Source of the DNA: Octopus vulgaris
Lineage: Eukaryota
Direction: 5' to 3'
NCBI GenBank assembly: GCA_951406725.2
Contig: OX597827.1
Location: 28,706,001-28,770,000, forward strand
Length of the DNA: 64,000 nucleotides
In this document: positions 8,558-61,157 of the stretch, piece by piece
How the letters are laid out: each line of letters begins with the position of its first letter
Position numbering within the stretch: position 1 is the stretch's first letter
Notes under the pieces: model-generated
The model's database searches: none
What the model saw: only the letters and a program-made list of their open reading frames with translations
What the model was told of the DNA's origin: nothing
Program-made: the position numbers and the translations under genes

Positions 8558-8965
8558 GGCGGCGAGCTGGCAGAAACGTTAACACGTCAGGCGAAATGCT
8601 TAGAGGTATTTCGTCTGCCGCTACGTTATGAGTTCAAATTCCGCCGATGTCGATTTTGCTTTTCATCTTTTCGGGGTCGATTAAATAAGTACCAGTTACG
8701 CACTGGGGTCGATATAATCGACTTAATCCCTTTCTCTGTCCTTGTTTGTCCCTTCTATGTTTAGTTTTTGTGGGTAATAAAGAAATAGGTATTTCGTCTG
8801 CCGTTATGTTCTGAGTTTAAATTCCGCCGAGGTCGACTTTGCCTTTCATCCTTTCGGGGTCGATTAAATAAGTACCACTGGGGTTGATATAATCGACTGA
8901 ATTCGTTTGTTTGTCCTTGTTTATCCCCTCTGTTTGTAGCCCCTTGAGGGCAGTAATAAAAATAA
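8558..8965 (+). mobile_element. SINE family 2, tandem dimer with Tx1-like tails
   Basis: Head GGCGGCGAGCTGGCAGAA, B box GAGTTCAAATTCC, body GC(C)TTTCATC(C/T)TTTCGGGGTCGA; second unit restarts at GGTATTTCG (8788). Confidence 0.85.
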
Positions 8966-9390
8966 GAACGTGAGTATCAATATTGAACACGAATAGTCAG
9001 TTTGATGCACGTGAGACAAACAGAACGGAGGTGTCGTTATCAGCGGATGTGGGTGGCTTGAAAAGTAGCGGGGTGCATCCCTTTTATATATTTTAGCCTC
9101 TTACTATGACACATATTGCATTTCATCCTTTCGGGGTCGTTAAAGTAAGTACCAGTTGGGCATTGGAGGCGTTGCAATAGACTTAACCTACGCCCCCCTC
9201 CCGAAATTACTAGTCTGGGACCTAAATTTTAAACCAATATTTGTTTCAGCTCTCAAATACTAATGAGGTCAACCTTGTCTTTGTTTTCCTTTTGGAATCG
9301 ATAAAACAGAATCGATAAAACCTGTCAAGTACAACAATCAATTTTATCGTCTGCCCCACCTCGTTGAATATTTCTGAATCTTTTACTTAA

Positions 9391-16570: not shown

Positions 16571-16765
16571 TATTCTTTTATTCTTTTACTTGTTTCAGTC
16601 ACTTGATTGCGGCCATGCTGCAGTACCACCTTTTTAGTCGAAAAAATTCGACCCCAGAACTTATTTCTTTGTAAGCCTGGTATTTAGTGTATCGGCCTCT
16701 TTTGTTGAACCGACAAATTACGGGGACGTAAACACACCAACATCGGTTGTCAAGCGATGGTGGTG
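16571..16765 (-). mobile_element. SINE family 3, 3' half
   Basis: TATTCTTTTACTTGTTTCAGTCA..GCGGCCATGCTG tail block. Confidence 0.8.
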
Positions 16766-25436: not shown

Positions 25437-26700
25437 ATTATTATTTTGCTAGTAGATGCTAATTTAGTTAGCAGGTATTTTATCTTCAGACTTAGGGACA
25501 AGTTTCCTCAAAATATCAAGAATTTTTCTTCGGATTCTTGCAGAATTTAGAATGGTACAATTCTGCATGTCGACAATGCGAGTTACTGTTCCAATCTGCT
25601 TCAGTCTTTGAGGCAGCATTTCGGGTGTTGTGCTAAGCGGACCAATTACTGCAGGAATAATCGTTGCCTTGTTCTTCCATAGTCTCCTCAGGTCTCTGGT
25701 TACATCCTCCTATTTCTCAGTTATTTTTCATTTTCTTTGGTATGAATTCCGGCATCATAGGGAATTGCAAATCTATTATGTTACACTGTTTTTTTTTCTT
25801 TTTGTCCTCTCTGATCATATCCGGTTTTCTTACTATCAACTACACGGTCAGTCTTTATAGGAAAACGCACAAGATGTTGTACTTATCATTTTCTTTCACT
25901 GCCTCTCTTTTCTATTATTTTGAAGCCCACACACTCGGCTAACATCCCAATACACTCTTTTGCTTATACAGTCATGCTTACGTTTACACTCCTTTTGTGC
26001 TAGTATACTGCACTCGCTCAAAATGTGGCGGATACTTTCGTTTCATTTCCTGAAGATGCTACATCTGTTGCCTGACTGGGTCTTTACTGTATAAAGTTTG
26101 TTCTAAGTTTTGTTCCTGAGCGGCTATAATTAGCGTTTTGGTCTCTCACCTCAGGTTCCCATCCGTCAGCCAGCAGTCCTTCACTTCTGTTATTCTTGAT
26201 TTGTTGCATGAATTGGTCATTTAGTCCCTTCTCTTCCCATCTGTTTGCGTTGTTGTTCTTTCTTTACCCCTTCAATTCTTTTACTGTGTCGGTCACTTTT
26301 GGGTATCTTTGGCTACCGATGGCATTATTTCTTTACTCTGCGCAAAATTATTTTCCACGTCCAAAATCGCACAACTAATCGATTCATCTGCATTTAGTAA
26401 TACTCTACCACCTTCATTTCTTCGTATGCAGAGTCGGTTGATATTATTATTTTTAGGATGGAGTACATTATACGTCGTGAGTAGCTTTCTAGTTCTTCTG
26501 TCCAAGTTCTGGAGTTCGACTTTTGTCGATTTCAGAAAGGGATCAGAGTATCTCAATACGGGCATAGCCCAAGTTTTTGTGGCTTTAATGATGTTCCCGT
26601 CATTTAATTTTATTTCGAGCACCTTCCTTATTCTCCTTTTGTACTCTTTATTGACTTTCTCTCTCATTTCTCCTTCCATTATCCTATTGTCGTGTGGCTT
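25437..26700 (-). pseudogene. R4/Dong-like retrotransposon, 3' half (RT thumb, degenerate zinc knuckle, RLE, tail)
   Basis: EYKRRIRKVL..KLN.GN.IKA..TWAMPVLRYS...LDRRTRKLLT....HPK...RL...R.EGGR; downstream RKPD and IIPAVIGPL remnants; ends in AATAATAAT. Confidence 0.8.
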
Positions 26701-27216
26701 CCTCTCAGCAGCGATTTAATGATGTCTTATGATAAATTGATGTCATCTGAGTTTACCTTCCGGCCTCTCTACTATTATCATTAATACGCAATTAGAATAG
26801 CGCGATATAGAATAAAGCACAAAATGACTTTCTTTATTGAACTGAACGGCGTTTCAAGGTTGTGTCCCTTTTCGTAATGTTCGAAATAGGATGAGAATGT
26901 TGAGAGGTGAAAAATACACAGAAATGCTGAAATTTAAAACTGCAAGTGGATGACCCTGCATCCCAACTTATGCCAAAAACATATCCAAGTTTCGCTTGTT
27001 TGTCACTGGTTAAAACAAGGAAAAAAAACAAGAAAAATAAAAGAAAAATGGGAAGAGAACTCTTACTCAAAAAGTTTTATATAAATCTAATGGAATTCTC
27101 CAGTCATTTTGTTCATAACTCTACTCAAGAATGAGTTTATATAAAAAATATATATTAATATTACGATGTATTTGCATTGCAAGTGACCTGATCTGAGATC
27201 GTGTACTGGAACGAAA

Positions 27217-27536: not shown

Positions 27537-28045
27537 CCAGTCCAAATATGCTTGAGACACGTTCGAGCTGGGGAACAAGTAATTCACTGTGTTTTGTCAT
27601 AGAGAAAATCTCTCGCTGTTGACAAATGGTGTGGATATACCTTGATCATTTCGCAGCGCCACCTACCTAGACTGTGAGCTGCTGGCATCGAACGTACCTC
27701 AAGCATATTTGGACTGGTAATAACATTGCATTTACACCTATCGCTGCTTAGTGCTTCTCCTCCGTAATTTGCTTACGGTCAGCCGCCGCATTGCGCTATC
27801 ACCAGGAAAAGCACAAGGGAGACAATCTCTTTGATCAGTATGGAGGATCACTTGCCTGGTGTCTGTGGCCGAAGAGGATACAACTGCACAGAAATGCTGG
27901 CATCTCACAGTCAAGTTAGTTGGCGCTGTGAACTGACCTAGATGTATCCACGCCATTTGTCAACAGCGAGAAATTTTCTCCATGATAAAATACAGCGAAG
28001 GCCTTGTTCCCCAGTTCGAGCGTGCCTCAAGCAAATTTGAACTGG
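27537..28045. mobile_element. MITE with about 100-bp TIRs and TA flanks (Tc1/mariner-like)
   Basis: TA|CCAGTCCAAATATGCTTGAG...CTCAAGCAAATTTGAACTGG|TA; extra right-end copies end at 27717 and 28761. Confidence 0.7.
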
Positions 28046-28059
28046 TAATAATTATTTCA

Positions 28060-28334: not shown

Positions 28335-28353
<19 letters not shown>

Positions 28354-28748
28354 TCTACTCTAGGCAAAAGGCCTTGAAAATGTTGGGGAAGGGGGCTAGT
28401 CGACTATATCGACACCAATACGTAACTGGTGCTTATTTCCTCGAACCCGAAAGGATGAAAGGCAAAGTCGACCTCGCCGGAAATTGAACTCAGAACGTAA
28501 AGACAAACGAAATATCTATTTCTTCACTACCCACAAGGGGCTACACACAGAGAGGACAAACAAGGACAGACAAACGGATTAAGTCGATTATATCGACCCC
28601 AGTGCGTAACTGGTACTTATTTAATCGATCCCGAAAGGATGAAAGGCAAAGTCGACATCGGCGGAATTTGAACATAGAACGTAGCGGCAGACGAAATACC
28701 GCTAAGCATTTCGTCCGGCGTGCTTACATTTCTGCTAGCTGGCCGCCT
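28335..28748 (-). mobile_element. SINE family 2 composite: Tx1-tailed unit (28517-28748) joined to an alternative-tail unit
   Basis: Minus-strand junction AAGAAATA|GATATTTCG. Confidence 0.85.
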
Positions 28749-28880
28749 TCATTTGGACTGGTAATATTATTGCACAAATATATTTATTTTGATATATAGA
28801 AAAGAACAGAAATGGAGCAATAAATATCAATGAGAAGTTGATCATCGGTACGAAAAGTTCATAGATGAATTGTAGTTCAG

Positions 28881-28965: not shown

Positions 28966-29149
28966 TAGAAGAATATCAATAGGAGAAAAAGGGAAATGAA
29001 AGAAGAGGAAAAGCGTAAAAGAAAATGGGAAAAGTTTGTTTATTTTCATATATTCTGCGAGTTGAAAATTTGTGGAGACAGAATACTTTCTATCCATGGG
29101 TACTTGGAGGCGTTCGTCAAAATTATAGTTGTTTTATTCTTTTTTATTT

Positions 29150-29655
29150 TTATCTTTTACTTGTTTCAGTCATTAAACTGCACCCATGCTGGTGCACCGT
29201 CGTGAAGAATTTTACTCGAATGAATCGACTCGCAATACGTTTTTGCTAAAGTCTGGTAATTATTTTATCGGTGTCTTTTTTCAAAACTGTTGAGTTACAA
29301 ACACGGACACAAAAATAATCACTCACACACACACATACACACACAAACACTCTCACACACACGCTCATACACAGTCACGCACACACTCACATACACACAC
29401 ACGCACACGCATACACATACACTCACACACTCACTCACTCTCACACAATCACACGCACACACTTCCACAAACAAACACACACACACGCACATACAGACAC
29501 ACGCATTAACACACATACACACAAATCCTGTCACAAGGCTTTGGTCATCCCGAGGCTTTAGTAGATATATTTGCCGAAGATATCACGAAGTAGGACTGAA
29601 CCCGGAACCATGTGGTTGGGAAGCAAGCATTTTGCCACACATCTATACCTGCGCC
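29150..29655 (-). mobile_element. SINE family 3 with expanded internal (CA)n
   Basis: Tail and head blocks flank a degenerate CA tract. Confidence 0.75.
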
Positions 29656-42400: not shown

Positions 42401-44327
42401 ACATGGCGGAACGCAAAGAGTGTGTTGGTTAGTTATTTTGCATGTGAAAATTTGGAAAAAAACTGTTAAAAAATTGTCAAAAATTGAATCGCTTGAGGCG
42501 TTTGCCGCTGCGTGTTTGAACCTTTTATAGAAGGTGTGTCGACCCTCAAGTCATGGAGACTTACGCGGGGGTCGCCACAATAAAAAGTGACGAGTCTCTT
42601 AGAATAAGAGAAGTGTTCTTTAGAAAAGAACAATTGAAGGAATACGAGAAGTTCGTCAAAAGGGAGGGTGACAGCGTGAAGCTGGTCCCACCTGTTGAAA
42701 CAATAGAGGAGAGAAATAACAAGACGATAACGTATAGAACGCAAGATAGAAACACGAGAAAACTGGTGAGAGTGACGATTGAAGAAATAGAGAAATGTCT
42801 GGGGGACATCATGAAAAAAGCGACTTTTGTAGACAGAGGAAAGAAATATGGTACGGTGGAGGTGAGATGCGCAACAAAGGAAGTGGCGGCCTCATTGGCT
42901 TCCACTGTCCTGAAAGCCGAAAATTTCACTATGTGGCCGACGTATAAAGGAAGACGAGGGGTACGGGTAAGAGTCCCAAAGGTGCCCCCAGATATTAAAA
43001 CAGAAATGCTGGTAACAGCCATTATTGGAGCAGCAAAGGAGGAAGTAGAAATAGGGTCAATCAAGGAGACGAACGTTGTAAATTGGAAGGGATTCGGAGT
43101 AGAGTTGTGGCTGATGGCCACAATGGAAGACATCGAAAGATTTCCCTTCCAAATAGAAATAGAAAACGAGAAAACAATTAGTGTAATAGTGGAGGGCAGA
43201 AAACCGAATTGCTACCTGTGCGGATCAAGAGGGCACATAAAAGGAATGTCCGCTGTATGAATTCACAGCGGAGCAAAAAGAGACACAAAGTGGAGAGAAG
43301 GAAAACGAACACGAAGGAAAGAACAGCGAAAACAAGGAAAAGGAAATAACGGAGAAACAACAAGAGAAGGGAAGTAACAGCGCACTGAAGGAAAATGAAA
43401 ACAAAGGGAAGAAGATAGTAGAAAAGGAGCAAAATTCACAGGGTGCAGAAGTAGTGGAGAAGGAGCCAAGGCAGAAGCAAGAGAAAGAAAAGGAAAGTAC
43501 ATTAAAGGAAAGAGAAAAAGCAGGAAAAGAACAAGAGAAGGAACAGAACCAAGAGAAAGGAAAAGATGGTATGCAAAAAGGAAAAGAAACAACAGGAAAG
43601 GAACATAAGGCACAGGGTAGAGAGACGGCAGACAAAGAGCCAAAAAGACAAGAGAAGGAAAAAGAAAGAAGAGAAAGCAAAAAGAGAGAAAGAGAGAAAC
43701 CGAGGGAGGAGAAAAAAGAGGAAGTAAGTCCTAAGAGAAAAACTAGAGAAAACGTAGGTGCGAATAGAAAATTCAAATACTATGGAACGTTGATCCATCA
43801 CAGGCACTGTGAGGAGATGGAAGATTTAATAAACGTAACAAATGGATATACGTGGGTCAGGATGGGCACCGAATGGAAAGAAACAGGTGCACTCGTCCAC
43901 GAGAACGACGCTGAGGCGTTCATCGAGGCAGCTGGCAGGAACGTGACAAAACATATGAAATGCCGACTTACAAGGTGGACACGAACGATGGAAATTTACC
44001 ATGATTTGGTAGAGATAATGGAGTATATATAAAAGAAAAGGTATTGTGAAAACTTTAATTTGGAAATGATAAAAAGAACTTTAAATTCTGGAAAAAAAAA
44101 AATGTTGAACTTTGTAAAATTTTTGAAATGTATGTTGAAAATGTGTAAAATGTTTTTATTTGGAAAATATTGTTGACGAATAAAAAACAAATGACGAAAT
44201 GTAACCGCTCGATTTCGGGGATCGAGTGGGCATTACACCACATTGTACAAACTTCATAATTCATTATTCATTTTTCCCCATTGTATTGTCCCATCTATGT
44301 TCGCCCCTAGTGGGTAATAATAAAACA
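42401..44327 (+). mobile_element. ORF1-only non-autonomous Tx1/L1-like element (unit A)
   Basis: Shares the head ACATGG.GGAACGCAAA and the 3' tail with the downstream LINE; encodes only a Gag-like ORF1. Confidence 0.75.
42553..44032 (+). CDS. Gag-like ORF1 protein (CCHC knuckle, long Lys/Glu-rich region); one frameshift near 43243
   Basis: RGKKYGTVEVR and VEGRKPNCYLCGSRGHIK/ECP; a +1 shift joins ORF 42553-43260 to the stop-free frame ending at 44032. Confidence 0.75.
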
Positions 44328-44553
44328 ACATGGAGGAACGCAAATCGCGTGTGTAGTGAGTTATTATATTTTTCCTTAGTGTATATTTTCTCCGTTATAT
44401 TCTACTGTGTGTCTAATTGTCTTTGTTTTTTGTTGTACAACTGTTGAAGTCAACCTTCGTGCGAGGGCTTCGTGTTGGTGTTCCCCCCTCCGTGGGGGAA
44501 AAACTATCATTATTGCGGCTTGTGCCAAGGGCTTGTTAAGCCAGTTGCTCGAG

Positions 44554-45836
44554 ATGGAATCCCCCATCTCATATTCCCCTGTGACTAGTGAAGCAGAATC
44601 ACCGGCGGTGTCGCCAATGAAAAAAGATATTGCAGCTCCAGCGAAAAAATTTTCAGAAGTAGCTGGCAAGAAAATCAAAAAAATAAACGTCGAAGACCTA
44701 AAGAAATATGCGGACTGTGTGACAAAAGAGGGCACGGAAGTGACAGTGGTCACAAACGCCCCAAAACAGGAAGAAATTGCTAAAAGAATAATAATTTATA
44801 AGACCTTTAATGATACAAAAAATTGAGGAAAAAAAAATCGAAAATTGCTTAAAACCAATAATGGATAAGATCACATACATCAATAGAGGAAAGAGATACG
44901 GCACAGTGGAGGTGCGATTCACAACAGAGGAGATAGCTAAAAAAACTATCTATGGAGCCAATAAAAGCGGAGAACATTGTTCTCCTCCCCCTGTATAGAG
45001 GAAAAAGAACATCAAAAATCACCATGAATAATATTCCGCCAGAAGCGGATGCCGAATGTCTGGTGGCAGCAGTTATGGTAGGCCTGGAGGGAAAAATAAA
45101 CATCCTCCAGGCCACAGTAGAGGAAGAAGAATTCTGGAAAGGACAGCGGATAATAATAGCCATCCAGGCAGAAATTCAAACATTGGAGGAGATTCCAGAG
45201 ACTCTAAAAATAAGCGAAGAAGATAGAGTAATAGTTTTCGTAGAGGGCAGAAAGCCGAGGTGCTTCGGCTGCGGCAAGAAGGGGCATGTAAGGGCGAAAT
45301 GCCAACCCCAACCCAAACCGCAGGAAGCAGCTCAGCCAGGTGGAAAAGAAGAAGTGTCACCAGTAGCAGCGTCGGGCGGCCCAGAAGGGACGGCTGAAGG
45401 TGTGGAGGTGACAGAGGCAGCGGAGCCAGCGACGGAGGAAAAAAAGAGCGAGGTAACGAAAAATGAGGAGGGGTGGTCAAAAATTACTAGAAAAAAAAGA
45501 AAAACTGAAACCACCCCTCCCAAAGTGATCATAAAGAAGAAAAGAGAGTCGATGAACTTATTTATGGCCGTTAAGGCATCGAACAACAGACTCGGGAATG
45601 TGTTGGCAGCTATGGCCAAAGTGGAAAAAATAGGAAAAAAAAATGACTATATAGTGTACAGAATAGGCCGGAAGGATTACGGACGGATAAAGTCCGAATT
45701 CTTTCATGACGTGGGCCCGCTCAGAATGGATATAACATCTCCATATATATTCGAGGGCCTGCGTCAGACTCCCCCACGAGGCCCAGAAAAAGAGACAAAC
45801 AAAGAAGAAAAAGAAAAAAACGAACCACTGATATAA
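44554..45836 (+). CDS. ORF1 Gag-like nucleic-acid-binding protein; two frameshifts at A-runs (about 44820 and 44942)
   Basis: RGKRYGTVEVR; VEGRKPRCFGCGKKGHVRAKC (CX2CX4HX4C); homologous to the unit A ORF1. Confidence 0.8.
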
Positions 45837-45844
45837 AGTAAGTA

Positions 45845-48800
45845 ATGGATTACATTTATGTTGGTTGTTTAAATGTGCGCGGCCTGGGATCAGGCTGGAA
45901 GCAAGGTCGCTTCCTGCATGATATCAGGTCGAGTAATTTAGATGTTATTGTTGCTACAGAAACCCGGTTAGAGGGGCCAAGAGGTCTACTCCCGCTGTTT
46001 GACGGCTACGAGAGTTTTTTCTCTCCTGGCAGTCCTACAGGCGGGGGTGGGGTGTTGGTCCTATTAAAAAGAAACCGGGTTTCTGAGAAAAAGTTAATTT
46101 TTGCAGATCCAGAAGGTAGGCTGGTCGTCATGGATTTGACGTTCAGTAACGGTAAAGTTATCAGACTGGTTGCAATTTACGCACCCAACCATAGAGGGCA
46201 AAGTGATTATTTTCGTGAACTGGAAAACTTTCTTGGTACTTCGCATTCATTAGTTGTGCTAGGAGACTTTAACACAATTTGCAAAGCGGATGTAGATTGT
46301 GTTAGCTCGCGTCCAGATAGAAAAGGTAACAGTGGCTTCATGGAACTGCTAAGCCGCTTTGAGCTAGCAGATCCTTATAGGCTGGAATTTCCGAACGCTC
46401 CATTGTGGACATGGTCAAACAGCGACGGATCTTCCAGGTCATATTTAGATAGAATACTAATTAGAAAAGTAGACAGAAATATAGCTAAGTGTCCACAGTT
46501 TTACCTGGTCAGCTACAGTGATCATAAAATGGTCACCTGTAAGCTTGACATAGATAAGGTTAAAAATAGAGGATCCGGTTACTGGAAACTTAATACGTCC
46601 CTTTTGGCGATTAAGGAGTACAAAGACCGGATTAGGACTATAATTCAGAGGGCACTCTCTGGTACCATCATTAATAACAAATGGTGGTACGCCCTCAAAC
46701 GAGCCATCAAATTCGAGTCAATTAGATATAGCATAGGAGTAGTGGCTAGAGAGGCTAGGAGGGAAACTACTCTAGTTAAGGAATTAGAGGAAGCCTTGAA
46801 AACTGGCTCCGCGGCTCAGGTGACGTCCAAGAGACTGGTGTTAAACCAGCACCTCGAGGCCAAACACATGGGCTGCATTGTCAGGGCTAGGATCCGCCAT
46901 ATGGGTTGTGAAGGAATCAACGCCGTGAGATGGGTGGAAGCTCAGCATGGTAACGATGCCACGATTCGATCTTTGACGAACCAACAAGGTGAGTTGATAA
47001 ACGAGCCCGAGGAGATGTGTGAGGCCTTTCAGGAGCACTTCGCTCAGCTTTTCGGTGAGTGCGGCGGACTGGATAGGAGAAGGGCCTTTACGGACCTCCT
47101 CGACGGGCTGCCGCGCTTATCGGGGCGAGATGCGGAGGGCTGTGAAGGGCCAATCACGCCTGGGGAGGTGGTTGAGGCGATGGCGGACTGCGGCGCGGGC
47201 AAGGTGCCGGATTTAGATGGTCTACCCTATGAGTTATATAAGAGTATGCCAGACTTGTTCGGGCACCTACTGGCGGAGGTCTATGCGAACTGGCAGCAGA
47301 ACGGGCTCATACCCAGATCTGTGCGCCGGGGAGTAGTGACACTCGTCAGAAAGGACCCGAGCAAGGGGGAGTGCATTGATAATTTTAGGCCCATCACTCT
47401 GCTAAACACAGAGTTGAAGATTTTGGCCAAAGTGTTATCGAAAAGATTGGCGCGTGTCGCGGATGGTCTGATCGGGGAGGTACAGACATGTGCCGTTCCG
47501 GGCAGAACCATTCAGGATAATCTCCATCTTATGCGGTACACTATAGAGGGGTTTAATAGCGATTCTGGCAAGGGTGGGGCACTGGTCCATTTAGACCAAT
47601 CTAAAGCATTTGATAGGGTCGACCATCGCTACCTGGTATCTGCCCTGGCACAGTTCGGGCTGAGCCTCGGCTTCCTCAGGTGGATTATCCAAATTTACGA
47701 CAACATCGACTCGGTAGTTCGGGTGAACGGCTTCTTGTCGAAGCCGTTCAACGTCAAACGCTCGGTTCGTCAAGGGTGTCCGCTCTCCCCGCTTTTGTAT
47801 GTGATGGCTCTTGAGCCATTACTGCGAAAACTGAGCGGCATCCCGAGACAGCCAGGTAGTGGAAAATCGGTGTCAGCGTACGCGGATATCACCATCATCG
47901 TAACCGAAATGGACCACATACGTAAAGTAGGCAAGGCCATAGAGGTTTACGAGACGGTGACAGGAGCAAAAGTTAATCGCGAAAAGTCAGTCGGCTTGCA
48001 ACTCGGCACCTGGAGAGGCAAGTCGATGCCTCCTGACAGCGTCGTGGGACGTTTGACGGAGGGTCCGATTAAGTTGCTAGGGGTTTGGTTCGGTCCAGAC
48101 CTCCAAATAGAGAAGAATTGGGGCGAGGTATCGAGCAGGGTGGCTGCAGTAACCAAGACCTGGTCTTGGCGGTGGCTATCCCTGAAAGGGAGGGCGGAGG
48201 TAGCCAATGTGTTTATCGCATCGGTTATCACCTACCGCCTTTCCGTCGTTCCTTGCCCTGATTCGTGGTTGATCAAGTTGGAAAGACAGCTCTTCTACTT
48301 CTTGTGGAAGGGCGGGAAACCACTTGTGAAACGCTCTACTTGCTGTCAACAACCGTTAAAGGGTGGGCTAGGGATGCCTTGGCTGATGATGCGCAGACAT
48401 GCGCTGAGGTTAAGACATCTGTGGCTCTACCTGGATGGTGAACGGGTGTGGTCTCCGCTAGCAAAACTGATGTTTCCCAAGTTCACTAGTTTCGGTGGAT
48501 GGGAAACCTGGCTGAATCGTAGATCGAAACTAGGCACATGGTACACGGAGTGTCGCAAGGCTCTCCTGCTATTCCGTCGCTCGTGCAACGCCTGCGGTGG
48601 GGGTTCCACCACATTCTTCTATAGAGGGTTGGTAGAGGCGGAATGTGAAGATACCTTGGGGGAAACCCTAGGTCTCGACGATAATCAGCTGGCCAGTCTG
48701 TTCCGACGTACGTTCGAGCCGAAGACACTGGACAACTTCCAGAAGTCTCTGGCATGGCAATGCTACAGAGGAGCTCTACCTGTTCGGGATAAACTCGCAA

Positions 48801-49228
48801 GGCACGGTGGCCAAGACAATCCAATATGTCCAAGATGCGAGCGGGATAGGGAAACCGTCCCGCACGCTATTGTTCATTGTTCGGACGTGTCTGAGGTGTG
48901 GGTTTATGCCGAACAGCTGTTGTCAAGCACACGAAGAGTACAGCTGTCGACTGAATCGATTACAAAAATTGACCCACCAGATTTCCTCGCGAAAGAAGGT
49001 AAGAATTGTTTTCTCGTAGTAGTAGCAATTGCGAAAGAGGTGATATGGAAGACGAGAATGAAAGGTTTACAGTCAGGCAAGTTCATCTCCAACCCTGGTT
49101 TGATGAATTATTTCATCTTTCACCTGAAAAGGAAGATAGGGCTGGAGAGAATATGCCTGACTAGGAGAGTGTATGAAGAACGATGGAAAAATGTAGCACG
49201 AAAGTTGCGAATGGATGTTACCACATAA
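45845..49228 (+). CDS. ORF2: APE endonuclease, reverse transcriptase and C-terminal Cys/His domain (Tx1/L1 clade), 1127 aa
   Basis: LNVRGL, ATET, IYAPN, GDFN, SYLDRI, SDH (APE); GYWKLN; FRPITLLN, LDQSKAFDRV, VRQGCPLSPLLY, YADI (RT); CPRC...ET..H..VHC. Confidence 0.95.
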   Translation: MDYIYVGCLNVRGLGSGWKQGRFLHDIRSSNLDVIVATETRLEGPRGLLPLFDGYESFFSPGSPTGGGGVLVLLKRNRVSEKKLIFADPEGRLVVMDLTFSNGKVIRLVAIYAPNHRGQSDYFRELENFLGTSHSLVVLGDFNTICKADVDCVSSRPDRKGNSGFMELLSRFELADPYRLEFPNAPLWTWSNSDGSSRSYLDRILIRKVDRNIAKCPQFYLVSYSDHKMVTCKLDIDKVKNRGSGYWKLNTSLLAIKEYKDRIRTIIQRALSGTIINNKWWYALKRAIKFESIRYSIGVVAREARRETTLVKELEEALKTGSAAQVTSKRLVLNQHLEAKHMGCIVRARIRHMGCEGINAVRWVEAQHGNDATIRSLTNQQGELINEPEEMCEAFQEHFAQLFGECGGLDRRRAFTDLLDGLPRLSGRDAEGCEGPITPGEVVEAMADCGAGKVPDLDGLPYELYKSMPDLFGHLLAEVYANWQQNGLIPRSVRRGVVTLVRKDPSKGECIDNFRPITLLNTELKILAKVLSKRLARVADGLIGEVQTCAVPGRTIQDNLHLMRYTIEGFNSDSGKGGALVHLDQSKAFDRVDHRYLVSALAQFGLSLGFLRWIIQIYDNIDSVVRVNGFLSKPFNVKRSVRQGCPLSPLLYVMALEPLLRKLSGIPRQPGSGKSVSAYADITIIVTEMDHIRKVGKAIEVYETVTGAKVNREKSVGLQLGTWRGKSMPPDSVVGRLTEGPIKLLGVWFGPDLQIEKNWGEVSSRVAAVTKTWSWRWLSLKGRAEVANVFIASVITYRLSVVPCPDSWLIKLERQLFYFLWKGGKPLVKRSTCCQQPLKGGLGMPWLMMRRHALRLRHLWLYLDGERVWSPLAKLMFPKFTSFGGWETWLNRRSKLGTWYTECRKALLLFRRSCNACGGGSTTFFYRGLVEAECEDTLGETLGLDDNQLASLFRRTFEPKTLDNFQKSLAWQCYRGALPVRDKLARHGGQDNPICPRCERDRETVPHAIVHCSDVSEVWVYAEQLLSSTRRVQLSTESITKIDPPDFLAKEGKNCFLVVVAIAKEVIWKTRMKGLQSGKFISNPGLMNYFIFHLKRKIGLERICLTRRVYEERWKNVARKLRMDVTT

Positions 49229-49470
49229 ATGTAAAACCGGACGAAACCAAAGTATCAGTGGGGAGACGGGGCTCGTGGGGTCCGAGCTAAACCCGCTCCC
49301 ACTCCATCCGTAATGTCTTCCGGTCTGTTCTCCATTCGATTTTTTATATTTTGTAATTTTTTGTAAATTTTTAAAATTCGCTTTGTTGTAAAACCCATTC
49401 GTGTATCTGACCCCATCATCAGATTGTATTGTCCCATCTATGTTCGCCCCTTGTGGGTAATAATAAAACA

Positions 49471-49790
49471 ACATGGAGGAAAGCACCTTCGAAAAGTGTC
49501 TTTGTGCGACTATGAAAGATATCTAATCAGAGGCGGTAAAGTCGCCACAATAGAAGCAAGGTTCGAGTCAACGGAGCGTGCAAGGGAGTATTCGACTCGA
49601 ACTTGCAAAGTGGAATTATATTTTACTTTTCCCTTTATATCTGGGACGTAGGACGTCCGGAAAAAAATTTTTAATGCATCCCCCCACCCCAGAAGTAGAG
49701 GTAGGCTGTATTGTAGCCACGCTTCTATACAAGAGGGAGGGCAAGATACAATTGATCGAAATTACAAGAGACGGGCTAACAATTCCAGTC
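49471..49790 (+). pseudogene. Third Tx1-like unit (C): head motif plus a deleted, frameshifted ORF1 fragment
   Basis: ACATGGAGGAAAGCA head; IRGGKVATIEARF...LLFPLYLGRRTS...PEVEVGCIVATLL..EGKIQL aligns with ORF1 of units A and B. Confidence 0.7.
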
Positions 49791-50435: not shown

Positions 50436-51041
50436 GTGTGTGTGTTGTGCATATATGCAGGTATTTATACATATATATTTGACACGTTATCTCGTTTGGA
50501 ATTTCTGTATCGATAATTTTTACGTAAACTAAACACTAGACGCAGAAATCCACAGGTTAAACAAACAGCAATTCATGAACGGGTATTTTGAAAAACTATT
50601 GGACAAAGAGTCATGGAACAACACAAGTAGAATAACAACAACAGCAACAACGAAATAAAAGGAAATAAACCTAAAATTCGACAGACACCAAACCTATTAA
50701 ATATGCACAAATCATACGCCAAGTGAATGATATAAATCAAATGAACACCAACCGCAGAATAGGTGAGCACATGATCAGAAACCCACGTAAACCAAGAAAG
50801 AAAACGTGTTACAACAAACTATATATTAACGTGAGTAATATACTATTAAAACAACTGAAATTAAAAACTTTCTGAAGAATAATAAATCAGAAACTTGTAA
50901 ACCCAGGAGCCGGTGACTAACGACCAATGTGGTTTATAGATTTCTATTGTAAACGTGTAGGTTGTAAATTTCATGACTATGGCTGCTATTCTGGCAGTAA
51001 ATTCAGTTGCATACTATGGGGTTGCAGAGTAGAGGAAACGA

Positions 51042-51865
51042 GGCGGCGAGCTGGTAGAAACGTTAGCACGCCGGACGAAATGCTTAGCGGCATTTCGTCT
51101 GCCGTTACGTTCTGAGTTCAAATTCTGCCGAGGTCGATTTTGCCTTTCATCCTTTCGGGGCCGATTAAAGAAGTACCAGTTACGCACTAGGGTCGATATA
51201 ATCGACTTAATCCGTTTGTCTGTCCTTGTTCGTCCTCTCTATGTTTAGCCCCGTGTGGGTAGTGAAGAAATAGGTATTTCGTTTGCCGTTACGTTATGAG
51301 TTCAAATTCCTCCGAGGTCAACTTTGCCTTTCATCCTTTTGGGGTTGATAAATTAAGTACCAGTTACGCACTGGGGTCGACGTAATCGACTTAATCCGTT
51401 TGTCTGTCCTTGTTTGTCCTCTCTATCTTTAGCCCCTTGAGGGCAATAAAGAAATAAGAAATGTTAACACGCCGGACAAAATGCTTAGAGTCCGTCTTTA
51501 AGTTTTTGAGTTCAAATTTCACCGAGGTTGACTTTGTCTTTCATCCTTTCGGGGTCGATAAATTAAGTACCAGTTGCGTACTGGGGTAGATTTCATCAAC
51601 TTGTTCACTCCCTTAAAATTTCGGGCCTTGTACCTCGAGCACAAAAGAATATTCATACAGGAAACAAGGTGGTGAGGTGGTAGAATTGTTAACACGCCAG
51701 AGTCCGTCTTTAAGTTCTGAGTTCAAATTCCACTGAGATCGACATTGTCTTTTGTCCTTTCAAGGTCGATAAAATAAGTACCAGTTTATACATGGGTCGA
51801 TGTAATCGATTAGCCTCCCCTCTGGACCTTGCTGGACTTGTGCCAAAAAAATTTGAAATCGATAT
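51042..51865 (+). mobile_element. SINE family 2 cluster: two Tx1-tailed units, one alternative-tail unit, then a fourth copy
   Basis: Units start at 51042, 51273, 51458 and about 51668. Confidence 0.85.
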
Positions 51866-52968
51866 ATCTACACGAAACAACACAAAGCAAAACAGTGGAG
51901 TCGTATGCTGGTAACACATCTATACGCTGTTGAATTCCACAGAAAACATGTTTAAAGAGAAATTAATATATGCACTTGAAACAGCATTATATTAAAATGC
52001 CACTGGGGCAATTATTTAATGTATATTTAAACGAAAAAAACACTAGTTGTAATATTTCTTCTGAGAGAAACTTCTGAAAAAGATATGTATTTTGACAGAC
52101 TCAAGATTTTACTCGTAAAGCAAGTTGATTCTAGGTCACTATGTTTCGACCTGATTTAGTCCCCTCAGTAACAAATAAAACAGGTTCTGAGTTAAAGCAA
52201 AAATGCTTGTTCCAATACAGAAATCGATCAACAAAACATTTACTGATTCGTGTTAAAGCTAGTTAAACTAAATTTAAATTCACATACAAACTTGAAAAAT
52301 CTATTTTTCAAAACATTATTTATGTATTTTATAATTTCATTGCAATTGTATTTTGCATATCACTATAGCTATGGTGCAAGCTTTCTCTGTAAACTTTTGG
52401 GAATGACACATTAATTTGGGTCTACATTAATCACACTGAGTTAAACAGCGAGAGAATTTAACGAAGGACTTATTTAAACAATCACCCGAGAAGGAACACC
52501 TTGGATGCAAGATAATGATTGTGCAACATCTCACCAATGTATGAATGGTGTAAGAATGTGTTGAAACAATCGGAATGGTTTTACATAAATAATGCCGTTA
52601 ATTGCATCTATCATTTATCTATATAACATGTAGAATATATATATATACAAATGTGGAAGAGTACTGTCTGTAAATTTGTCAGACAAACATTTCAAAGGGA
52701 CATTTGTAAAAAGAAAAAAAGAGTGATATAGCTTTGCTCAAAATTGGGATTGGTTTTTGGACACGTTCTTTCGACCTGATTTCTTTCCCTCCAGTCAGGA
52801 ATAGTTTGTAAATGCTGAGGTAAGCTGAAACTGTTTGTTGCGATATACGAATCGGTAAATGTTATGTTTACCAATTCGTGATTGAGACAGCCAGGCTAGA
52901 ATGAAATTATTATACGCTATTGAACGAGATAAAATTTTACTGCGTTATTCTTCCACGTTTGCATATCG

Positions 52969-53963: not shown

Positions 53964-55348
53964 TAGTAAAAAGTGAAAAAACTACAGAAGGCTTGTTTTA
54001 AAAGGTTAAAAAATATATACTTGAGTCAATATGTCTGAAGAATATTATAAATTTTTTCTTACAATGACATAGTTTAGAAGAAATGACCGGTTTCGCGTTC
54101 AGCTTTTCAAATTTCTTACATCGTTATGTTTATGTTGAGAAGAGTAATCGTTATGTTTATGTTGAAAAGAGTTCTAGATAAGGGGAGGTAATAAGTGATT
54201 TCTTCCGGTGTAAGGGAGATAATCGCTTAAAACTTTTTGCCTTTCCTTTGGGGTGAATTTCTCTGTATAAGTATGTTGGAATGGTTAAGTCTGGGCTTGT
54301 ACTTTTCAATGAAGAATGTTTCCTTGTTTAGTCTAATTTGTGTTGGTGTTCCGATAGCATATTGGTAAAATGGAAAGATTAAAAATTGTGGTAGTGGTTG
54401 CTTTGCGCATTTCTCAATGTGCTCACTAAAAGGTATCATTCTGTATTCTGGGAATGCAATCTGTTGTCGATGCAGTGTGCATCTATGTCTGAGTGATAGT
54501 CCCGTGGATCCCACGTAGTCTTGGTGGCAGCCCGAGCATTTTATGACATAAATTATGTTTTCAGAGGCACAAGTAAAATTAGATTTGATCTTGAATTTCT
54601 GTCCCTCTTTGAAGAGGAATTCTGATCCTTCTAGCAGGTTTGGACATGTTGCACAGTTCAGTCTACCACATTTTTTTTACTTTTGCATCCGTAATTTCAG
54701 AAAACAATTTTGCCTTTGTGAGAATCTTTTTAAGTGATTTAGGTTGTTTGTAGCTTTTAATGATTTGGTGTATGTTTAGAATTTCCTTTAATTTGGGGTC
54801 CTTATGAAGTATTGGTAAATTCTGGGCGATGATGGTGAAGGCTTCTTTGTTTCTGGGGTTGTATGTGGATATGTAAGGTAGTATTTTCGGGGAAGGTGTG
54901 TTGTTGTGTTGAACTTTTCTTAAAGTTTCTATGTTGATTTCTGTTGCACGTCTGATCCCATCCTCTATGAGTTGAGCTGGGTAATGTCTGTCAATTAGGG
55001 TGTTTTTGAGTTCTTGCAGTCTAAAGTTCCTGGTATTTTGTTCTGACAGTATTGTGCATATCCTTCTTGCAAGGTTGAAGGGGATGTTTGTTTTAGTGTG
55101 TCTTGGGTGGCATGAATTAAAAAGAAGGTATTGTTTGGCGTCTGTGGCTTTGTAAAAAATGTCTGTTTCTATTTTAAGGTTAATTTTTTTAATTAGTATA
55201 TCCAAGAATGGGAGCTCCTTTTGGTTGTATTCCATTGTGAACTGTATATTTGGGTGTATGCTGTTCAATAGGTTTTTAAATTTTAGGAGTTTATCTGTGT
55301 TTTCCTTCCAGAGTATAAAACAATCGTCCAGGAATCGTTTCCAATTCT
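53960..55348 (-). mobile_element. 5'-truncated Penelope-like element (RT C-terminus plus GIY-YIG endonuclease)
   Basis: [35 protein letters not shown]; after a frameshift CATC...FTCASENIIYVIKC..C.QDYVGST. Confidence 0.9.
54078..54117 (-). ncRNA. Minimal type-I hammerhead ribozyme candidate, U3-A8 variant, in a Penelope 3' repeat
   Basis: AAGAAAU-UUGAAAA-GC(UGAAC)GC-GAAA-CCGG-UC-AUUUCUU; perfect 7-bp stem I, GUC site. Confidence 0.7.
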
Positions 55349-55352
55349 CTTT

Positions 55353-55403
<51 letters not shown>

Positions 55404-59029: not shown

Positions 59030-61157
59030 CGACACTCTACCTACATCTAATGAGGACTGCTTCATCGACCTGGGATGCCGACCATCCCAGTGGACGCCAC
59101 CTCATGGCCAGTTCCAAGCAGTCGATCTTTTTGTGGGCGCCTGCCAGCGCGCTATGGACCGGTTTAATTTTGCCAGGCGCCCCGTCATCTAAACATCTCC
59201 CCAGCTGAACTCTCGGCCCTTTCATGTCGCCGACGCCGCACTGACATCATGATCAAAACGGCCGGCAAGGGTGGAGCCATGGTGGTGTGGTGCGCAGACT
59301 TCTACACGACCGAAGCTCTCCGCCAACTTCAAGACACCTCCTTCTATTGCCCTCTGACCCCATGCCCAGCAATTAACAGACTGTGTCCTCCACTATCCAT
59401 GACCTCATCTCCTCCTCCTGTCTCTCCCCCACCGCCTCCAACATCATTGTCCGCACCCTTCGCAACACCACTATTTACGTCCTCCCACAAATCCACAAAC
59501 CTAACAACTCTGGCCGCCCCAGCATCTCCAGATATCTGAACCGTGTCCTTGCCCCCACCCCTAGTGGCTTCCCTCCCCTCTCACATCCATGACACCAACC
59601 ACGCACTTCGTTTGTTCAACTCTTTCTCTTTCTCTCCTGGCTCCTCTAAACTTCTCTTCACCCTCGACATACTGAGTCTTTACACGGTGATCTCTCACCA
59701 CGAGGGGCTGCGTGCACTCCAAAATTTCCTTGACCGTCGCCCCCCCCCCCACCTGACACATCCACACTCGTTCGTCTGGCCGAACCTGTACGCTCACTCA
59801 ACTGCTTCTCGTTCGCTGGTGATTTCTACCAGTATTTTCGGGAGAGGCCATGAGAACGAGAATGGGCCCCAACTATGCGAACCTGTTCGTTGGCTATGTT
59901 AAGGCCCAAATATTCTCAATATGCTCCCATCCACTCTGCCGCACTTGCCCTTACCTCTCCAGCATCACCCTTCTCCCCGGCACCCATCATCGACCCTATC
60001 ATATCACTGACTCCTTCACCTGCACTTCTACCAATATCATCTACTGCATATCCTGCTCTCTCTGCCCTTCTCAATACATCAAACAAACGAGACGCCGCTT
60101 GGCTGTCCGGTTCGCGGAACACCTCCGAGACATCCGACTCGGCAATGACACCCCGGTCTCGCGCCATTTCCACTCTACCAGTCGCTCTTTGCCGCACCTG
60201 TCCGTGTTCAGATTGTTCTTGCACAGGGGACATCCGGAATCCCGTTTGCACCGTGAACAGGGATCAATCTACTCTCTTCGCTCCTTTGCACCACATGGGC
60301 TCAAATCTCCTCCCCTTTTCATCTAACCTTCTCCCCTCGCCTCTCTCTCCCCCTCATACCTACCTACTCCAACCTACTTCTCCTATCTTGCTCCGACTCC
60401 TACTTCTCTTCACTCCTACCTCTCTTCACTCCTACTCTCCTTCTCTCTCCTCTTCACTCCTACCACCTTCTCCTTCCTCCCTCTCAGTGTTACCCTTCCG
60501 TCGTAAGACCACCCCACCCTTACACATTCCACCTCCACCTTCCCTATACTCCCCCATCCCTTACAACCACTCTCAATAGCCACCTCTACCCCCACCCTCC
60601 GCCTACACACATACCCCACCGCTACCCCCATCCTCAGCCTAACCGACAACCCACCCTTGCTTTCCCCACTTTCGCCTCCCCCACCTCCCAGCACCATCAT
60701 ACCACACAACACACAACTACAACTTACACCACCATACCACACAACACATCACATCACAACATACATCAGCACTGACCACTCCTTAGACACACATTCACAC
60801 ACGTACACATACACACACGCACACGTCAAGATCACCAACCCTCTTCCACACGCACATAAAAACTCTCTTATACACACGCACGCGCACCTTCGTTTTGCGG
60901 TCACCACTACTTTATTATCTCCCCTTTTCCTTAGCTCTCGTTTGTGACCCTTCTGTCTGGCATTCGTCATGATAGATCGCTAGCCAATACACATCCTTTA
61001 TTTTCTGTCCTTGTTTCTTTCTGTGTTCCTTTCTGAGGAAGAGCATAGGCTCGAAACGTTAAACACTTTCACTTCCCGAGCGTTATACCAATATTGTCTA
61101 GACCACCGGTCTTCGTCTTCAGTTTTTTTGTGAATTCTCCCCCTAATTCTCCCCCTA
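59030..61157 (+). mobile_element. Decayed Penelope-like element (RT N-half, internal deletion, GIY-YIG, pyrimidine-rich 3' region)
   Basis: IKTAGKGGAMVVW, YVLPQIHKP, LFTLDILSLYT, MGPNYANLF, then CRTCP...FTCTSTNIIYCISCSLC..QYIKQT...RFAEH. Confidence 0.85.
61030..61063 (+). ncRNA. Minimal hammerhead ribozyme candidate in a Penelope 3' repeat
   Basis: CUGAGGA-A-GAGC(AUAG)GCUC-GAAA-CG-UU; stem I is weak (UUU/AAA). Confidence 0.5.

Follow-up and report, generated by a model that had tools for sequence, protein, structure and literature searches.

A SINE of Octopus vulgaris with a LINE-derived tail and recurrent joints to the head of its own family

Target-specific insertion is known from several LINEs of the Tx1 clade, with Tx1L inserting into Tx1D, Keno into U2, and Kibi and Koshi into microsatellites (PMC4494074, available part). 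The same part of that source describes the closest known case to the one presented here, the SINEU-3/Tx1-Mar system of crocodilians, in which SINEU-3 is likely mobilized by a Tx1-clade LINE and 313 of 347 copies have Mariner-N4_AMi as flanking sequence; a retroposon is there counted as target-specific, by Kojima's criterion, if over 20% of its flanks are of one type. Both systems likely involve a SINE inserted into another repeat via a Tx1-clade LINE. However, as described there, SINEU elements have snRNA heads, poly(A) tails, an unrelated DNA transposon as target and visible duplications, whereas the SINE analysed here has a LINE-derived tail, its own family as target and a scar-free 5' side. 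Unlike our case, the Tx1-clade targets named in the available part of PMC4494074 include neither a SINE head nor a related ORF1. A model for the single head of our SINE is offered by R2, in which RNAs carrying upstream 28S sequence yield uniform 5' junctions that are attributed to annealing of the cDNA to the target; R2 differs in being autonomous, in its restriction-like nuclease and in its rDNA target (PMC3774820, available part). Tandems of Alu and of Dip/B1 also consist of several SINE units arranged head to tail, but those in the available part of PMC10702118 are full-length units or fixed dimers, whereas the units here have fixed internal starts and vary in subfamily and tail. Our search by motif found no paper, and in the openly accessible literature we found no described SINE with a Tx1-derived tail or one targeting its own head; an existing Repbase or Dfam entry is possible. 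Nesting within the own family is reportedly seen in Zepp of Chlorella, which inserts into its own copies; Zepp is an L1-like autonomous LINE and not a SINE. For Octopus vulgaris itself, recent activity of L1-Tx1 families and of SINEs has been reported, in keeping with the elements described here.

We analysed a 64,000-nt stretch of Octopus vulgaris DNA (the window), which is eukaryotic, AT-rich and rich in microsatellites. A BLAST search of the 64-kb window with a 228-nt unit (51045-51272) as query recovered 14 copies of a SINE of about 228 nt, with a 64-nt LINE-derived tail at the end of five of them. Outside the window it matches 146,953-284,304 contigs per DNA run, and it is short, non-coding, highly repeated and interspersed. 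We take it to resemble octopus SINEs, and presumably it also resembles the MetaSINE superfamily with its 66-bp Meta domain. An A-box-like motif at head positions 8-19 (up to two mismatches) and a B-box-like motif at positions 72-80 (up to one mismatch) are present in all three heads examined, both being pattern matches without a chance control. ARAGORN predicted no tRNA gene and Rfam gave no tRNA match; diverged tRNA-derived SINE heads are often missed by tRNA searches. The tailed copies lie in three clusters, A, B and C, composed of the following units:

8558..8787, + strand: unit A1, SINE head, body and, at 8725-8787, a LINE-derived tail of the GGGT type; position 1 of the unit is 8561
8788..8964, + strand: unit A2, first base is head position 45; LINE-derived tail 8900-8964, GGGC type
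8965..8971, + strand: head-like stretch after A2, 7 nt like head positions 12-19, then non-SINE DNA
28517..28747, - strand: unit B1, head, body and LINE-derived tail (28580-28517, GGGT type)
28350..28516, - strand: unit B2, first base is head position 45; belongs to the other subfamily, with C58T and G60T, and has a different tail with (AAT)n at its end
51042..51272, + strand: unit C1, head, body and LINE-derived tail (51209-51272, GGGT type)
51273..51456, + strand: unit C2, first base is head position 45; LINE-derived tail 51393-51456, GGGC type
51457..51653, + strand: unit C3, first base is head position 12; older subfamily, different tail

Unit A1 is a mosaic, its head (8558-8604) having G22A and C44A like the older C3 (51457-51489) and its body being closest to B1; an older unit, F, has only G22A in common with the A1 head. 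B2 (28506, - strand) and C2 (51283, + strand) both have C55T despite their different subfamilies. The window also holds pieces near 16662-16669 (- strand) and 29140-29200 (- strand) of a second, unrelated repeat, presumably SINE-like, one of which contains AAGAAATA without the LINE-derived tail. Three frames, at 54227-55403 (-), 59168-60326 (+) and 26296-26715 (-), have the appearance of decayed retroelement ORFs and gave no Pfam match at E 0.001; by eye we take the first two to be Penelope-like.

The original prediction had placed direct joints between this tail and an internal position of the head at 8787/8788, 28517/28516 (- strand) and 51272/51273, and all three are present, the 20 nt after the tails matching the head from position 45 at 18, 15 and 18 of 20 positions, respectively. 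A 17-mer spanning this joint occurs three times in the window with up to two mismatches, against a mean of 0.04 in shuffled sequence, and 0 of 100 shuffles reach three. The second type of joint that it proposed is equally real at 51456/51457, where 18 of 20 nt match the head from position 12. The further possible case near 8966 did not hold, as only 7 nt (AGAACGT) at 8964/8965 resemble position 12; the best 20-nt match of the following DNA anywhere in the head is 11/20, and the A2 tail therefore runs into non-SINE DNA. Hence the claim that none of the tailed units has a clear end in unique DNA stands for four of the five tails and fails for A2, and the tails divide into three joined to position 45, one joined to position 12 and one that precedes only seven head-like bases. 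With 14 copies in 64 kb, and with the loci taken as independent in a simple model, three of five tails would by chance meet at one and the same position, whichever it is, with a probability of about 3e-9. The downstream unit at the 28.5-kb locus, B2, does carry a different tail, as had been noted. GC precedes all three target sites in most copies, a motif too short to weigh. Together with the final 6 nt of the tail, head positions 47-52 make up a short inverted repeat (51267-51280 and equivalents) that spans the position-45 joint and replaces part of the 5' stem arm of the head.

The folding of the head raises the possibility that entry is guided by structure, with the long inverted repeat of the head extruding as a hairpin, its loop being nicked and any tailed RNA being primed there. 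A 13-bp stem is indeed predicted in the head (28-40 with 45-57), and its 3' arm begins exactly at position 45; in C1 it has a z of -3.37, only 1 of 200 shuffles being as stable, and A1 folds alike. Yet B1 at minimum energy folds otherwise, position 12 lies away from that loop, and the units seen at the position-45 and position-12 joints in the window are all LINE-tailed, with no other tails among them; we therefore think this explanation very improbable.

We compared the segment 51030-51299 with four of the 24 public runs listed (X1, X4, X10 and X23), leaving aside X18-X20, in which the shares are small; X10 consists of contigs and X23 of raw RNA reads under the same species label. In contigs whose match begins at 51092 (at least 804 in X1 and at least 1009 in X4), the majority letters upstream are the tail followed by GGT, and their agreement of only 0.57 (X1) and 0.53 (X4) indicates that the upstream letters are a mixture. 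The joint to position 12 (51272 to 51056) is found in 891 raw reads with 148 starts in X23, and in contigs four times in X10, once in X4 and not in X1. The depth of the first bin past the joint, taken relative to that of the last tail bin, is 0.956 in X1, 0.951 in X4 and 0.649 in X10, values that reflect contig depth rather than copy number and are biased upward as contigs that run on are favoured, and 0.056 in the raw RNA reads of X23. We judge the ratios of about 0.95 in X1 and X4 to be inflated, because under one species label contigs give 0.65 (X10) and raw reads 0.056 (X23). Of the tail-end depth in X23, 26% continues into position 12 and about 3.5% into position 45, both joints together accounting for only about 30% among the joints (15 out of 633) and loose ends (24 out of 1612) that were listed, a share that counts against targeted insertion. 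Set beside the 20% threshold introduced above, head joints thus follow 4 of the 5 tails in the window and at least about 30% of the X23 tail-end depth, the latter being a read share and not a genome-wide count of loci.

Both joints, then, recur widely, in runs of three organisms, which differ in how tail types and joints are balanced: at 51260 the tail has C in 11% of depth in X1 and X4, against about 90% in X10 and X23. A strict link between the GGGC tail and position 12 was rejected, for X10 has 91% C at 51260 and yet 65% of depth runs into position 45. Searches of metagenome, genome and viral collections with the tail pattern returned 0, 7, 6 and 0 loci; these 13 loci were considered as relatives of the SINE and dismissed as chance, as none matches beyond 20-29 nt around the pattern.

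If the clusters descended from one inherited dimer, the downstream units should resemble a single monomer. The p-distances among the partners at position 45 are 0.125 (A2-C2), 0.152 (A2-B2) and 0.183 (B2-C2), the upstream bodies are closer to each other (0.058-0.092), and A2 and C2 have no derived body letter in common. Neighbours are likewise distant, B1-B2 at 0.158 and C1-C2 at 0.133, against 0.058 for B1-A1. Differences from the local majority over positions 65-164 rise downstream in two of the three clusters, from 5 to 11 in B and through 6, 8 and 12 in C, while cluster A (6 to 4) is without an age gradient. Two other origins of the clusters were rejected. Insertion of a bare tail with a 120-bp duplication would make neighbours sisters, which they are not; and if the downstream units were later, 5'-truncated insertions, three tail types would have to be truncated at the same base, a late arrival being also contradicted by the greater divergence of the downstream units in B and C.

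The same distances weigh on a local tandem duplication of positions 45-228 in place, as the seed of a SINE-derived satellite. Such satellites exist in reptiles (PMC10702118, available part), the units here do lie head to tail, and in the approximately unbiased (AU) test sister pairs within a locus, at p 0.051-0.061, are not formally rejected. Against this, B1 is closer to A1 than to its own neighbour, C1 and C2 differ as given above, neighbouring units have different tails, and the same breakpoint occurs at unlinked loci, so that tandem duplication is already disfavoured and, of all the explanations considered, appears the least credible.

A further indication comes from the subfamily letters next to the joint in the public runs. 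At 13 and 15 nt past it, letters of the other subfamily make up 8.8 and 7.8% of depth in X1, 17.5 and 9.2% in X4, and 17.2 and 18.2% in X10; in all bodies, the same letters reach 14.1 and 10.4%, 20.3 and 14.4%, and 39.9 and 37.2%, respectively, giving a ratio of downstream to all-body share of 0.43-0.86. With an inherited joint and an even spread of crossovers along the body, no more than about 11% of them should lie ahead of the 13-nt site. A subfamily mix so close to the joint therefore makes it likely that one and the same base had two founders or more, and these, together with the second site at position 12, point to a site-specific cut. Overall, for fixed recurring joints followed by mixed downstream subfamilies, independent insertion on repeated occasions is a better fit than a single dimeric master.

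The main rival is a set of composite masters, under which a joint would have formed only once or on a few occasions; dimers and trimers would then have been transcribed into a single RNA and amplified whole via the LINE serving the outermost tail, and template switching or gene conversion would have swapped the downstream part. Dimeric SINEs are common (PMC10702118, available part), and several of our observations suit such an origin. Clusters A and C are alike in architecture and have the same order of tail types, which counts against independent targeting; a GGGT-tailed unit stands in front of both GGGC-tailed units and of one of the nine other copies (Fisher p 0.055). Letters are shared mosaically among units. 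In the comparison of trees that the original prediction proposed, the AU test rejects neither a clade of all downstream units (p 0.061) nor A2+C2 (p 0.061), and trees of the ten 120-nt bodies have no starred branch. On the other side stand the two subfamilies that begin within 13 nt of the same joint, requiring at least two founders, the dissimilarity of A2, B2 and C2, and the different balance of the two joints between organisms. We consider composite masters an unlikely source of the joints, though far less so than structure-guided entry or tandem duplication.

The target duplications around the clusters speak to both readings. The first copy of the one at cluster C is the following feature:

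51030..51041, + strand: 12-bp target duplication, likely 5' copy; further copies at 51656-51667 (10/12) and 51869-51880

The three copies of this 12-mer flank cluster C and SINE F, in the manner of two insertions of non-Tx1-tailed SINEs at one site. A 16-bp duplication (15/16; 28035-28050 and 28751-28766, - strand) encloses cluster B together with an older SINE, D, the two being separated by an (AAT)n/(TAT)n tract. Around cluster A there is a possible duplication (10/12, 27 nt past the tail), a weak one, as 4 of 105 random pairs score as high. The duplications bounding B plus D and C sit after non-Tx1 tails, a placement that counts for composite masters in so far as composites may also have been copied whole; it is explained just as well by a target SINE that was already there as by movement of the entire composite.

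The tail itself can be matched to a LINE present in the window, with the following features:

44339..49470, + strand: L1/Tx1-type LINE, nearly complete; broken ORF1 with a CCHC pattern; no poly(A)
45842-49228, + strand: ORF2 frame of the LINE, 1128 aa; endonuclease, RT and zf-RVT
49423-49470, + strand: 3' tail of the LINE, homologous to the SINE tail
42412..44327, + strand: ORF1-only relative with the 3' tail of the LINE (98% over 59 nt), placed upstream of it in tandem

All five SINE tails align to the last ~45 nt of the LINE 3' UTR with scores of 36-41, which 0 of 2000 shuffles equal, while six other tails of the same SINE score only 12-18. The 64-nt tail of the SINE thus has its like at the 3' end of an L1/Tx1-type LINE, and the name Tx1 given to the tail by the original prediction has indirect support from this homology. 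A conserved hairpin in the tail is not supported, the folding of only one of the five tails beating shuffles. The LINE belongs to the L1 group: its ORF2 has the Pfam domains Exo_endo_phos, RVT_1 and zf-RVT, a set common to all L1-group elements, and its endonuclease part matches L1 ORF2 chains. Membership of the Tx1 clade is plausible. A CX2CX4H pattern is visible in ORF1 (zf-CCHC matches with E 0.064 and 0.56 fall below the cut-off), a domain scan of ORF1 found no Transposase_22, and ORF1s with a CCHC knuckle instead of Transposase_22 have been linked to Tx1 (PMC5203782, available part). In an RT tree of 25 rows, which takes in 24 of 50 matches and contains no named Tx1 reference, the LINE groups with unnamed proteins and one fish protein, apart from plant L1s. 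No homologs of its ORF1 were found among longer proteins, and an Atlas search returned generic RT clusters only.

An 11-mer in three copies bounds the LINE pair, at 42401-42411 (10/11), 44328-44338 and 49471-49481, the last two being identical, and what follows 49481 is a piece of an older ORF1 (49590-49766, with 39% over 59 aa and E 2e-7). At this one locus, the LINE and its ORF1-only relative look like two insertions at a single 11-bp target in an older ORF1, with the fixed target and duplication that serve as a mark of the Tx1 clade. The sandwiched duplication has a counterpart in tandem insertions of SINEU, and in combining an APE endonuclease with an RT and sitting twice at one 11-bp site the LINE is like the target-specific Tx1 LINEs (PMC4494074, available part). 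The matching place in the ORF1s of the LINE and of the ORF1-only element is one or two letters off the target, a difference that may protect the pair from self-insertion. Same-site tandem insertion by a LINE with a homologous tail counts for targeted insertion of the SINE as well. The target and last bases of this LINE differ from those of the SINE, so that it is a relative of the SINE's partner and not the partner; no LINE with its 3' end joined to head position 45 or 12 was found, which counts against targeted insertion.

Taken together, we consider it probable that the clusters arose as copies were inserted repeatedly, and in the site-specific manner of Tx1, into SINE heads, annealing of cDNA to the target having made the 5' ends seamless; both steps we infer. 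The insertions proposed by the original prediction are favoured by the recurrence of the fixed joints beyond the window and by downstream units unlike one inherited monomer, while the sequence-specific cleavage and homologous 5' junction within that proposal are deductions. Under repeated targeted insertion, a Tx1-type endonuclease of the partner LINE would nick the head at position 45 or 12, and the nick would prime reverse transcription on the SINE tail. The SINE RNA would start with the same head as lies upstream of the nick, so that the cDNA could anneal there and the 5' side could heal without a scar, leaving one head instead of two. The newcomer would then sit behind an intact A and B box, and the old copy would be left as a trailer without an A box. 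Rounds at position 12 and then at position 45 could build three-unit clusters.

An insertion of this kind that failed to anneal is expected to leave a double-head joint. R2 does leave a minority of duplicated junctions (PMC3774820, available part), whereas there is none here among the 15 of 633 joints listed; this suits composite masters, and under targeted insertion almost all events must be seamless. Transcription bears on both readings too. A1 and C1 owe their T4 at position 94 to a letter that is in the minority (92% C in X1), and cluster B has no T4 run before its outer tail, as composite masters would have it; from a majority sequence lacking a T4 stop before the downstream unit, read-through transcripts are predicted, and copying of some composites as a whole, by the LINE that serves the outer tail, was probably a second route.

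We suggest, more tentatively than the insertion model itself, that this is a 'cuckoo' SINE, a family of very high copy number which, once it has a Tx1 tail, may spread almost only by entering its relatives' heads at two fixed positions, with scar-free takeover of promoter and location, served by a group of LINEs that target other retroposons; one such LINE target would be an older ORF1 of the LINE's own kind. New copies of such a SINE would add no new genomic sites. If targeting is correct, the SINE's own head would be an added target class for site-specific retrotransposition, and the family a natural, very-high-copy case of scar-free insertion guided by 5'-side homology. The endonuclease family may have switched between short targets, which would make APE specificity testable. 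Such insertions would be invisible to annotation based on target-site duplications or on presence and absence, age and copy estimates of a SINE-rich genome would be biased, and thousands of dated nested events would be on offer.
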